Positions 19,238-42,246 of a stretch of 64,000 nt of DNA are shown here, in pieces; within the stretch, counting starts at the first letter, position 1; each line of letters begins with the position of its first letter. Below the pieces are notes generated by a model. That model had not been told where the DNA came from, searched no databases, and saw nothing but the letters and a program-made list of their open reading frames with translations. The DNA comes from Escherichia coli (GTDB lineage Bacteria > Pseudomonadota > Gammaproteobacteria > Enterobacterales > Enterobacteriaceae), in the NCBI RefSeq assembly GCF_029227855.1, contig NZ_CP074356.1. One strand, 5' to 3'. Both the position numbers and the translations under genes were made by a program.

Positions 19238-20350
19238 ATGACGGATAATCCGAATAAAAAAACATTCTGGGATAAAGTCCATCTCGATCCCACAATGCTG
19301 CTGATCTTACTGGCATTGCTGGTTTACAGCGCCCTGGTTATCTGGAGCGCCAGCGGTCAGGATATTGGCATGATGGAGCGTAAAATCGGCCAAATCGCGA
19401 TGGGTCTGGTCATCATGGTGGTGATGGCGCAAATTCCTCCACGCGTTTATGAAGGCTGGGCCCCCTATCTCTATATCATCTGTATTATTTTGCTGGTGGC
19501 AGTAGATGCTTTTGGTGCCATCTCTAAAGGCGCTCAACGCTGGCTGGACCTCGGTATCGTTCGTTTTCAGCCGTCGGAAATTGCCAAAATAGCCGTACCA
19601 CTGATGGTAGCGCGCTTTATCAACCGCGACGTTTGCCCGCCATCGTTGAAGAACACTGGCATCGCGCTGGTGCTGATATTTATGCCCACGCTGCTGGTGG
19701 CTGCACAGCCTGACCTGGGAACATCAATCCTCGTTGCGCTTTCCGGTCTGTTTGTACTGTTCCTCTCTGGCCTTAGCTGGCGTCTGATTGGCGTCGCAGT
19801 AGTGCTGGTAGCGGCGTTCATTCCGATTCTGTGGTTCTTCCTGATGCATGATTACCAGCGCCAGCGCGTAATGATGCTCCTGGACCCGGAATCAGACCCA
19901 CTCGGCGCGGGCTATCACATTATTCAGTCTAAAATTGCTATTGGCTCCGGCGGATTACGCGGCAAAGGCTGGCTGCACGGCACTCAGTCACAACTTGAAT
20001 TTCTCCCCGAACGCCATACCGACTTTATCTTCGCGGTACTGGCGGAAGAGCTGGGATTAGTGGGCATTTTGATTCTGCTCGCTCTCTACATTCTGCTGAT
20101 CATGCGCGGGCTGTGGATAGCCGCCAGAGCGCAAACCACCTTTGGTCGCGTCATGGCTGGCGGCTTAATGCTGATATTATTCGTTTATGTCTTCGTAAAT
20201 ATTGGTATGGTAAGCGGTATTCTGCCGGTTGTAGGGGTTCCGCTCCCACTGGTCAGTTATGGAGGATCGGCGCTAATTGTGCTGATGGCTGGGTTCGGGA
20301 TTGTAATGTCAATCCACACCCACAGGAAAATGTTGTCGAAAAGCGTGTAA
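19238..20350 (+). CDS. mrdB: Peptidoglycan glycosyltransferase RodA (SEDS family)
   Basis: 370 aa polytopic membrane protein directly after mrdA. Confidence 0.96.
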
Positions 20351-20360
20351 GAGGTGCGCA

Positions 20361-21449
20361 ATGCGTAAGCAGTGGCTCGGGATCTGCATCGCGGCAGGAA
20401 TGCTCGCGGCATGTACAAGCGATGATGGTCAGCAACAGACGGTAAGTGTACCGCAGCCTGCGGTATGTAACGGCCCCATAGTTGAAATTAGCGGGGCGGA
20501 CCCGCGTTTCGAACCACTGAACGCGACGGCAAATCAGGATTACCAGCGCGACGGTAAAAGCTACAAAATCGTGCAGGATCCGTCTCGATTTAGCCAGGCG
20601 GGACTGGCGGCAATCTATGATGCCGAACCCGGCAGTAACCTGACGGCCTCTGGCGAAGCATTCGATCCGACACAGTTGACGGCGGCCCATCCAACGCTTC
20701 CGATCCCCAGCTACGCCAGAATCACTAACCTGGCTAACGGGCGAATGATCGTGGTGCGCATTAATGATCGCGGTCCTTACGGCAACGACCGCGTTATTTC
20801 GCTTTCTCGCGCGGCAGCTGACCGTCTTAACACGTCAAACAACACCAAAGTTCGTATCGATCCGATTATTGTCGCCCAGGATGGTTCGCTTTCTGGTCCT
20901 GGTATGGCTTGTACCACAGTTGCCAAACAGACTTACGCCCTGCCTGCACCTCCCGATTTAAGCGGTGGCGCGGGAACAAGTTCAGTGTCTGGCCCGCAGG
21001 GTGACATTCTTCCGGTCAGTAATTCGACGCTAAAAAGCGAAGATCCGACCGGCGCGCCGGTAACCAGCAGCGGTTTCCTCGGTGCACCAACGACGTTAGC
21101 GCCTGGTGTGCTGGAAGGCAGCGAACCAACACCTGCGCCACAGCCCGTTGTTACAGCCCCCTCGACAACGCCTGCAACCTCGCCTGCAATGGTGACACCG
21201 CAAGCCGACTCACAAAGCGCCAGCGGCAACTTTATGGTGCAAGTCGGGGCCGTTAGCGATCAGGCTCGTGCGCAACAGTACCAACAGCAACTGGGACAGA
21301 AGTTCGGCGTCCCCGGTCGCGTAACTCAAAATGGCGCGGTCTGGCGGATCCAGCTTGGCCCATTCGCCAGCAAAGCCGAAGCCAGTACCTTGCAGCAACG
21401 TTTGCAAACCGAAGCCCAATTACAGTCATTTATTACCACCGCGCAGTAG
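20361..21449 (+). CDS. rlpA: Septal ring lytic transglycosylase RlpA (rare lipoprotein A)
   Basis: Lipobox LAAC, Pro/Ser/Thr-rich linker, C-terminal SPOR domain; 362 aa. Confidence 0.94.
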   Translation: MRKQWLGICIAAGMLAACTSDDGQQQTVSVPQPAVCNGPIVEISGADPRFEPLNATANQDYQRDGKSYKIVQDPSRFSQAGLAAIYDAEPGSNLTASGEAFDPTQLTAAHPTLPIPSYARITNLANGRMIVVRINDRGPYGNDRVISLSRAAADRLNTSNNTKVRIDPIIVAQDGSLSGPGMACTTVAKQTYALPAPPDLSGGAGTSSVSGPQGDILPVSNSTLKSEDPTGAPVTSSGFLGAPTTLAPGVLEGSEPTPAPQPVVTAPSTTPATSPAMVTPQADSQSASGNFMVQVGAVSDQARAQQYQQQLGQKFGVPGRVTQNGAVWRIQLGPFASKAEASTLQQRLQTEAQLQSFITTAQ

Positions 21450-21588
21450 CGTAAAGCAGGCATCTGATGTGTCAATTTCTGTAAATGACGTTAACAAAGT
21501 CACGCGGAAAGTCAGATGCCTGCCGGTAGTGCATTTGCTATAGTAGGGCACTTTTTTTAATTCCATCACGGATGTCGTAGTTCAGACC

Positions 21589-22800
21589 ATGAATACCATT
21601 TTTTCCGCTCGTATCATGAAGCGCCTGGCGCTCACCACGGCTCTTTGCACAGCCTTTATCTCTGCTGCACATGCCGATGACCTGAATATCAAAACTATGA
21701 TCCCGGGTGTACCGCAGATCGATGCGGAGTCCTACATCCTGATTGACTATAACTCCGGCAAAGTGCTCGCCGAACAGAACGCAGATGTCCGCCGCGATCC
21801 TGCCAGCCTGACCAAAATGATGACCAGTTACGTTATCGGCCAGGCAATGAAAGCCGGTAAATTTAAAGAAACTGATTTAGTCACTATCGGCAACGACGCA
21901 TGGGCCACCGGTAACCCGGTGTTTAAAGGCTCTTCACTGATGTTCCTCAAACCGGGCATGCAGGTTCCGGTTTCTCAGCTGATCCGCGGTATTAACCTGC
22001 AATCGGGTAACGATGCTTGTGTCGCCATGGCCGATTTTGCCGCTGGTAGCCAGGACGCTTTTGTTGGCTTGATGAACAGCTACGTTAACGCCCTGGGCCT
22101 GAAAAATACCCACTTCCAGACGGTACATGGTCTGGATGCTGATGGTCAGTACAGCTCCGCGCGAGATATGGCGCTGATCGGCCAGGCGTTGATCCGTGAC
22201 GTACCGAATGAATACTCGATCTATAAAGAAAAAGAATTTACGTTTAACGGTATTCGCCAGCTGAACCGTAACGGTCTGTTATGGGATAACAGCCTGAATG
22301 TCGACGGCATCAAAACCGGACACACTGACAAAGCAGGTTACAACCTTGTTGCTTCTGCGACTGAAGGCCAGATGCGCTTGATCTCTGCGGTGATGGGCGG
22401 ACGTACTTTTAAAGGCCGTGAAGCCGAAAGTAAAAAACTGCTGACCTGGGGCTTCCGTTTCTTCGAAACCGTTAACCCACTGAAAGTAGGTAAAGAGTTC
22501 GCCTCTGAACCGGTTTGGTTTGGTGATTCTGATCGCGCTTCGTTAGGTGTTGATAAAGACGTGTATCTGACCATTCCGCGTGGCCGCATGAAAGATCTGA
22601 AAGCCAGCTATGTGCTGAACAGCAGTGAATTGCATGCGCCGCTGCAAAAGAATCAGGTCGTCGGTACTATCAACTTCCAGCTTGATGGCAAAACGATCGA
22701 ACAACGCCCGCTGGTTGTGCTGCAAGAAATCCCGGAAGGCAACTTCTTCGGCAAAGTCATTGATTACATTAAATTAATGTTCCATCACTGGTTTGGTTAA
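21589..22800 (+). CDS. dacA: D-alanyl-D-alanine carboxypeptidase PBP5
   Basis: 403 aa; signal peptide; SLTK (SxxK), SGN and KTG motifs. Confidence 0.96.
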
Positions 22801-26332: not shown

Positions 26333-26363
26333 AAAAAACCCGCTTTTTGAAGCGGGTTTTTTT
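26333..26363. terminator. Bidirectional intrinsic terminator between convergent lipA and tatE
   Basis: aaaaaacccgct-ttttga-agcgggtttttt, symmetric A/T tracts. Confidence 0.8.
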
Positions 26364-41537: not shown

Positions 41538-42246
41538 GTGCACAGAAAACCCCCAGCTAGGCTGGGGGTTCCGGAAAGCTTTCAGCTTTGAGCCTGTTAT
41601 TAAAACCCCTTTTGATTTGTTAAAACACCTTGCGGTCTGGCAACTGCAAGTGTCAAACAAGAAATCAAAAGGGGGTCCCAATGGGGAACGAAAAGAGCTT
41701 AGCGCACACCCGATGGAACTGTAAATATCACATAGTTTTTGCGCCAAAATACCGAAGACAGGTGTTCTACAGAGAGAAGCGTAGAGCAATAGGCAGTATT
41801 TTGAGAAAGCTGTGTGAGTGGAAAAGCGTACGGATTCTGGAAGCTGAATGCTGTGCAGATCATATCCATATGCTTGTGGAGATCCCGCCTAAAATGAGCG
41901 TATCCGGGTTTATGGGATATCTGAAAGGGAAAAGCAGTCTGATGCTTTACGAGCAGTTTGGTGATTTGAAATTCAAATACAGGAACAGGGAGTTCTGGTG
42001 CAGAGGGTACTACGTCGATACAGTGGGTAAGAACACGGCGAAGATACAGGATTACACAAAGCACCAGCTTGAAGAGGATAAAATGGGAGAGCAGTTATCG
42101 ATTCCCTATCCGGGCAGCCCGTTTACGGGCCGTAAGTAACGAAGTTGGATGCAAATGTCAGATCGTGTGCGCCTGTTAGGGCGCGGCTGGTAAGAGAGCC
42201 TTATAGGCGCATTTGAAAAACCTCCGGCTATGCCGGAGGATATTTA
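41538..42246 (+). mobile_element. IS200-family insertion sequence (IS200/IS605 family), boundaries approximate
   Basis: Single Y1 HUH transposase ORF with left-end hairpin (41549..41569), 69-nt stem sequestering the tnpA RBS (41606..41674) and right-end hairpin (42221..42239); about 709 bp, no terminal inverted repeats. Confidence 0.6.
41681..42139 (+). CDS. tnpA: IS200 transposase TnpA (HUH single-strand transposase)
   Basis: 152 aa; HuH motif (DHIHMLV) and C-terminal Tyr region; aaaggggg RBS. Confidence 0.93.
   Translation: MGNEKSLAHTRWNCKYHIVFAPKYRRQVFYREKRRAIGSILRKLCEWKSVRILEAECCADHIHMLVEIPPKMSVSGFMGYLKGKSSLMLYEQFGDLKFKYRNREFWCRGYYVDTVGKNTAKIQDYTKHQLEEDKMGEQLSIPYPGSPFTGRK

Follow-up and report, generated by a model that had tools for sequence, protein, structure and literature searches.

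The window is a 64,000-nt stretch of Escherichia coli DNA in which the open reading frames from mrdB to lipB correspond to MG1655 b0634-b0630, on the minus strand there. The spacer between rlpA and dacA, which contains a long-range inverted repeat, is framed by the following features:

19238-20350: mrdB, open reading frame
20361-21449, plus strand: rlpA, open reading frame, annotated as rlpA in E. coli genomes
21447-21449, plus strand: rlpA stop codon (TAG), 6 nt 5' of the hairpin described below
21589-22800, plus strand: dacA, open reading frame with its ATG at 21589

Open reading frames for ybeD and lipB lie beyond dacA, and rlpA is the last gene of the rsfS-rlmH-mrdA-mrdB-rlpA unit. A 241-nt spacer query gave one match each in 5424 of 5426 complete E. 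coli genomes, flanked by rlpA and dacA annotations, and the only difference between the window and K-12 MG1655 across the spacer is a run of seven T residues (T7) at 21552-21558 that is T6 in K-12. The gene order extends beyond E. coli: when DacA was used to scan one genome per species, rlpA was found 5' of dacA in 79 of the 80 loci, and within the Enterobacteriaceae the spacer is about 135-150 nt long.

A preliminary description of this DNA had reported perfect 12-bp arms, spaced by 44 nt, between the rlpA stop codon and dacA. The repeat was confirmed in each respect, with GCAGGCATCTGA (21456-21467) complementary to TCAGATGCCTGC (21512-21523) at 12 of 12 positions, 44 nt between them, and the pair bounded by the stop codon at 21447-21449 and the dacA ATG at 21589. 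By itself the repeat is weak evidence, because first-order Markov simulations give 0.32 perfect 12-bp inverted repeats (loop 3-60 nt) per 64 kb, with at least one in 22% of the simulations. RNA folding, a check proposed in the same description, was more telling. The 68-nt gene-strand RNA (21456-21523) folds at -31.4 kcal/mol compared with -13.1 +/- 2.4 for shuffled sequences (z -7.7; none of 200 shuffles was as stable), and an extra U-G pair between 21468 and 21511 brings the RNA stem to 13 pairs. In the predicted fold, this basal stem leads through a one-sided internal loop of 7 nt to a stem of 7 pairs, topped by an apical stem of 4 pairs; the parts are:

21456-21468, plus strand: basal stem, 5' arm (12 Watson-Crick pairs and one U-G), varying among species with pairing to the 3' arm kept
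21469-21510, plus strand: hairpin interior in the predicted fold, conserved in sequence among Enterobacteriaceae
21476-21482/21504-21510 and 21486-21489/21499-21502, plus strand: inner stems predicted for E. coli
21511-21523, plus strand: basal stem, 3' arm (GTCrGATGCCtG), better conserved than the 5' arm, at the putative dacA -35 region

RefSeq annotation places no feature on the hairpin. A scan against Rfam 15 (E up to 10) returned noise only, such as MIR477 with a score of 16.4 bits (E 3.5; threshold 65), and a window scan for the arm sequence matched the two arms only, with no second copy. The hairpin is thus an unannotated, single-copy RNA structure without an Rfam family. Its position invites comparison with REP/BIME elements, which stabilise upstream mRNA and are likewise intergenic palindromes at operon 3' ends acting as would-be exonuclease barriers. 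Assignment to that group was rejected, as the rlpA hairpin is in single copy in 5424 of 5426 E. coli genomes, with a median of one place per genome in near and distant searches alike, and contains no REP sequence.

Transcript-end mapping had also been proposed as a check, and published Term-seq data supply RNA 3' ends next to the stem on the rlpA-sense strand. Adams et al. 2021 (eLife, PMC7815308, supplementary file 1) list an end at MG1655 664018(-) with a score of 91306 and, in a second condition, an end at 664017(-) with a score of 41794, both classed as 'orphan'; an end on the other strand, 664101(+), is listed three times, two of the entries scoring 1166 and 1788. Coordinates were mapped to the window through the RefSeq annotation, and the printed 61-mers were verified as spanning -50 to +10 around each end:

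21533-21534, plus strand: steady-state RNA 3' ends (664018/664017(-)), 10-11 nt 3' of the stem, with the tail CGGUAGUGCA(U)
21450, minus strand: weak antisense RNA 3' end (664101(+)), 6 nt beyond the hairpin on the opposite strand

The sense-strand end is listed in only two of the three growth conditions (Adams et al. 2021, PMC7815308), and its scores equal in height those of neighbouring gene-end peaks such as that of ybeD. The LB OD 0.4 peak was dropped from the published list of 5'-UTR ends, since the first feature upstream of it is the rlpA stop codon (PMC7815308), indicating that the authors' filter assigned it to the upstream gene, as that gene's end. The Adams et al. Term-seq listings hold no other 3' ends within the hairpin or at the T-run, and the SMRT-Cappable-seq, ROSE and TERMITe supplements hold no rlpA or dacA entries. 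Supplementary file 2 of Adams et al. 2021 gives no Rho-termination region near 664,0xx, in a set of Rho sites that its authors describe as an underestimate (PMC7815308). Across the downstream 65-100 nt the C/G ratio is 0.87-1.0, i.e. there is no C-over-G bias.

Further observations concern these ends. The antisense end at 21450 could mark a short antisense transcript that originates in the dacA promoter region and reads back through the hairpin. The 664017 end was retained in the Adams et al. 5'-UTR table for one condition (PMC7815308), which by the stated rules implies that a mapped start site lies no more than 200 nt upstream. A short RNA from the rlpA 3' region that ends at the hairpin is therefore conceivable, and would fall within 21333-21533 (MG1655 664018-664217).

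Ends so close to a stem raise the question of termination. The preliminary description had held that the repeat is not a canonical intrinsic terminator because a U-tract is missing after it, and both statements proved right as far as they go: the bases directly 3' of the stem (CGGTAGTGCATTTGC) include no such tract, a terminator scan was negative, and 42 nt are enclosed within the 13-pair basal stem. A T7 run at 21552-21558, 29 nt 3' of the stem, had been overlooked. Measured against the canonical form, the tail directly 3' of the stem is CGGUAGUGCAUUUGC, which is not U-rich, where a run of about five or more U in 8 nt would be expected; and in place of a compact GC-rich stem with a loop of 3-8 nt, the basal stem encloses 42 nt and two inner stems. 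The canonical model was accordingly rejected.

A non-canonical terminator is a separate matter. Here, a hairpin lacking a U-tract would release RNA polymerase about 10 nt past the stem and insulate the dacA promoter from upstream transcription, possibly acting in both directions. The strength, precision and closeness to the stem of the sense-strand ends suit this explanation, as do the opposite-strand end 6 nt past the hairpin, the lack of a reported Rho-dependent region at the site, and the usefulness of termination just 5' of a promoter. Although the main rival to the explanation favoured below, it appears unlikely to us, since at the observed end the RNA-DNA hybrid would consist of GGUAGUGCA and would not be U-rich, the consensus terminator scan finds no site on the hairpin's strand, and with an interior of 44 nt the basal stem is less likely to close quickly during transcription. 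Moreover, the ends that favour it come from Term-seq, which cannot tell termination from processing. The resemblance to a canonical intrinsic terminator is confined to a GC-containing stem past a stop codon and an RNA 3' end some 10 nt farther on; the rlpA hairpin differs in its missing U-tract, its long interior and its failure to be called by the terminator scan. Bidirectional terminators (Ju, Li & Liu 2019, as cited in PMC7815308) also offer a limited parallel: 3' ends on both strands around one hairpin are shared, but rlpA and dacA are co-directional and not convergent, the rlpA stem has no A-tract/U-tract pair, and the antisense signal at the rlpA site is about 50-fold weaker.

Conservation of the pairing was the third proposed check. 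Single-sequence folds, which need no alignment, showed a long-range helix in most Enterobacteriaceae species, with differing arm sequences, joining bases just 3' of the rlpA stop codon to a segment 5' of the sequence TATAGT; the 3' arm usually ends 13-17 nt 5' of this conserved box. Arms in Enterobacter (GGUAUCCGA/UCGGAUGCC) and Phytobacter (AGGCACCUGAU/GUCAGGUGCCU) illustrate the divergence, and a like long-range helix with other arm sequences was found in Erwinia (CCGGCAUCC/GGAUGCCGG), Pantoea and Serratia loci. In a sequence-only MAFFT alignment of 48 spacers the 5' arms fell out of register. For this reason a covariance model was built instead, from 16 in-register sequences with the outer helix as its only structure, and 44 Enterobacteriaceae loci were realigned to it; the search cutoff was tightened because a looser first search also took five reverse-strand matches. 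In the resulting alignment 78% of cells are paired, compared with 25-42% when partners are slid by 1-3 columns, a level of pairing that is inflated because the alignment is fitted to the structure. Changes on both sides were found in 9 of the 16 pairs (45 cells). None of 500 shuffles of the 44-locus alignment reached any of the pairing or covariation measures, although such counts are not to be read as probabilities since the sequences are related. The arms therefore pair across 44 Enterobacteriaceae species, with compensatory changes. By the preliminary description, unconserved arms and no transcript ends nearby would have refuted its reading; instead, pairing is conserved and 3' ends lie 10-11 nt downstream.

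Outside this group, Rahnella, Hafnia, Yersinia and Edwardsiella have longer spacers and carry a compact GC-rich hairpin directly 3' of rlpA instead, indicating that a hairpin 3' of rlpA is a general feature of the order. The compact Rahnella and Hafnia hairpins were not called by a strict terminator scan.

The covariance alignment also bears on whether the conserved entity is RNA or DNA. A G-U pair in the sense RNA corresponds to an A-C mismatch in the antisense RNA, and both are mismatches in DNA. Among the core pairs, 42 G-U or U-G combinations were observed as against 9 A-C or C-A, and in 35 of 43 species the sense strand gave the more stable fold (means of -26.5 kcal/mol for sense and -23.6 kcal/mol for antisense). 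The G-U excess together with the better sense fold favours selection on the rlpA-sense RNA, and the asymmetry, as a sequence signature, favours a sense-strand RNA over a palindromic protein site or a cruciform. A protein-binding site had been among the functions suggested in the preliminary description, and the arms could in principle act at the DNA level, either as a split operator bound by a dacA regulator (dimeric or looping) or as a cruciform responsive to supercoiling; the 3' arm does lie within the putative dacA promoter -35 region, and the loop contains a conserved direct repeat. We regard such a DNA element as very improbable, and the suggested protein site found no support: the arm sequences change across species with complementarity kept, the 5' arm drifting through compensatory changes, whereas a DNA palindrome is strand-symmetric and would not be expected to share the excess of G-U over A-C or the better folding of the sense RNA. 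The two arms are, in addition, unequally conserved, and RNA 3' ends flank the hairpin. A palindromic operator was rejected on the same pattern of a variable 5' arm, a conserved 3' arm and compensatory substitutions that are not strand-symmetric.

Two conserved features were identified, one immediately downstream of the hairpin and one in its loop:

21536-21544, plus strand: TGCTATAGT, extended -10-like, putative dacA promoter identified by conservation, with a predicted start near 21550-21552
21471-21485, plus strand: direct repeat GTCAA-N5-GTAAA in the loop, one mismatch from GTAAA-N5-GTAAA

No block of the spacer is more conserved than TGCTATAGT: across 48 Enterobacteriaceae its columns vary little or not at all, and nearly every Enterobacterales spacer contains it. 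On this conservation it is probably the dacA promoter. It was not called by a strict sigma-70 promoter scan, because its -35 is poor. Yersinia, Rahnella, Hafnia and Serratia, where the long hairpin is absent or a different one is closed, also carry a GATGyCTG block, equally far from TATAGT. These comparisons show that the DNA of the 3' arm and loop is conserved and lies at the -35 position and upstream of a probable dacA promoter.

The direct repeat in the loop is one mismatch from GTAAA-N5-GTAAA, the CpxR-type consensus; matches with one mismatch number three in the window and are unenriched. A repeat with at most two mismatches to this sequence lies 67-68 nt 5' of TATAGT in 35 loci, and the distance of GTnAA-N5-GTAAA to TATAGT is 67-68 nt in the Enterobacteriaceae and 63 nt in Serratia, Yersinia and Hafnia. 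Of ten exact GTAAA-N5-GTAAA matches across all fetched loci, eight fall in the rlpA-dacA spacer, Serratia, Yersinia and Hafnia included (at about 2384-2402 in loci L034, L039, L040, L042, L054, L059, L068 and L076). The loop repeat is, by its spacing, probably a DNA-level upstream promoter sequence of dacA. Literature searches found no paper linking CpxR to dacA, and nothing relevant on an rlpA/dacA terminator, on BolA and the dacA promoter, or on rlpA with ProQ or Hfq.

Further along the spacer, the presumed dacA 5' UTR contains CACGGATGTCGT (21567-21578), whose conservation extends from Escherichia as far as Serratia and Yersinia. The annotated dacA ATG at 21589 has no Shine-Dalgarno-like sequence at the usual distance, and at codon 10 another in-frame ATG stands ahead of the signal-peptide-like sequence MKRLALTT.

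The T7 run itself is preceded by a small hairpin:

21528-21552, plus strand: weak E. coli-specific hairpin, followed by the T7 run at 21552-21558; -8.1 kcal/mol, z -1.55 (not significant)

This combination is probably not a conserved terminator. It was rejected as one on the basis of its z-score of -1.55, an AGTGC arm that is unconserved (GGCAC-T6-7 being conserved), and the lack of a listed Term-seq 3' end. The run could be tied to the long hairpin in another way, as the UGCCU of the 3' arm could pair with GGGCA 5' of the T7 run. Such a pairing would be part of a broader alternative, in which the hairpin is a processing site for RNase III or RNase E, or a ribosome-influenced attenuator, that sets how much mrd-operon transcription enters dacA. 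In the window the stem begins 6 nt past the stop codon, within reach of a terminating ribosome, and the sense-strand ends fall within GCA/U/UUGCU (slashes mark the ends), resembling the A/U-rich single-stranded sites that RNase E prefers. The alternative is nonetheless improbable in our estimation. RNase III cleavage would give 3' ends within the stem, and none is listed there; the alternative fold is no better than shuffled sequences (z -0.64); AGGCAC variants are uncompensated; and the small hairpin 5' of the T-run is unconserved. A terminator/antiterminator switch pairing UGCCU with A/GGGCA was rejected for the same z-score of -0.64 and lack of compensation. As a substrate for RNase III, which would call for about 20 or more near-continuous pairs, the stem offers 13 + 7 + 4 pairs broken by the 7-nt one-sided internal loop.

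Taken together, the data are best explained by a hairpin in the rlpA 3' UTR that defines and protects the stable 3' end of the mrd operon transcript, encoded by DNA that probably also serves as the dacA promoter region; we put the probability of this explanation at roughly 70%. Among the functions offered in the preliminary description, an RNA stability or processing element is thereby the likeliest, given the conserved compensatory pairing and the adjacent 3' ends. In the proposed mechanism, the arms would pair in the rlpA-sense RNA and a 68-nt imperfect hairpin would close in the rlpA 3' untranslated region. Exonucleases moving 3' to 5' would be expected to stall at the stable stem, leaving an end 10-11 nt downstream in CGGUAGUGCA(U). 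Alternatively, cleavage within the A/U-rich single-stranded stretch, a type of site that RNase E prefers, would yield an upstream RNA with the hairpin as its cap. As for the origin of the end, we prefer a cut or termination farther downstream followed by trimming back to the hairpin: classical intrinsic termination fits poorly with the missing U-tract and a hybrid that contains GC, as does a Rho-dependent route with the lack of both a reported Rho region and a C-over-G bias. The same DNA would serve dacA, with the 3' arm at the -35 and the loop upstream of the extended -10 TGCTATAGT. Constraint on the 3' arm and loop as promoter DNA would explain both their sequence conservation and a 5' arm that changes so that pairing persists. 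We infer stabilisation of the rlpA transcript end from these features. Counting against this explanation is the 44-nt interior, which is far longer than is typical of terminator or protective hairpins.

Stable stem-loops without U-rich tails have been described just upstream of steady-state 3' ends, which they shield from PNPase and RNase II (Dar & Sorek 2018, PMC6061677). The rlpA hairpin most likely belongs to this class of stem-loops protecting steady-state 3' ends, being a -31.4 kcal/mol stem-loop at a precise 3' end with no U-rich sequence after the stem. Like the published examples (PMC6061677), it is stable, lies past the stop codon and directly 5' of a precise 3' end, and has no U-tail. 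The Dar & Sorek 2018 set (PMC6061677) comprises Rho-dependent transcripts with a mild C-over-G bias downstream, whereas the rlpA site has no reported Rho region and no such bias (C/G 0.87-1.0). The rlpA hairpin differs further in that its 44-nt interior is much longer and it doubles as the promoter-upstream DNA of the next gene.

More speculatively, hairpin and dacA promoter might form one device, in which promoter DNA, comprising the 3' arm and the loop with its CpxR-type direct repeat, yields through upstream transcription an RNA copy that stops or caps mrd transcripts, and occupancy of the promoter or of a regulator site, or the ribosome halting 6 nt upstream, tunes readthrough. This is a long shot in our judgement. 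If true, readthrough from the elongasome operon into dacA (PBP5) would couple two cell-wall functions, and the antisense RNA ending at 21450 may be part of the device.

The hairpin opens no new class of mechanism. It does add a phylogenetically supported RNA structure to the well-studied cell-wall cluster mrdAB-rlpA-dacA, and it accounts for an 'orphan' Term-seq peak that was published but left undiscussed; the hairpin is not discussed in the text of any paper found. One stretch of DNA here bears two constraints, as an RNA stem for the upstream operon and as a probable promoter for the downstream gene, which is relevant when the rlpA-dacA spacer is engineered or deleted, for example in dacA or rlpA constructs.

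Two other sites in the window carry inverted repeats. An IS200-like element absent from K-12 occupies 41540-42136. It contains a GC hairpin (CCCCCAGC/GCTGGGGG) at about 41550-41570, followed by a 13-bp inverted repeat whose arms, at 41606-41618 and 41662-41674, enclose a 43-nt loop; 6 nt separate this repeat from an ATG at 41681. This ATG starts a 152-aa Y1_Tnp, IS200-like transposase (Pfam E 1e-36), and we take the repeat at 41606-41674 to resemble the IS200 stem-loop that hides the ribosome-binding site. The second site, 26333-26362, looks like a bidirectional intrinsic terminator: an inverted repeat of 12-13 bp (AAAAAACCCGCTT/AAGCGGGTTTTTT), perfectly paired around a loop of 4 nt, stands between an A-run and a T-run. 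Sequence matching this repeat is listed as a cspE/crcB 3' end in the Term-seq table (Adams et al. 2021, PMC7815308).
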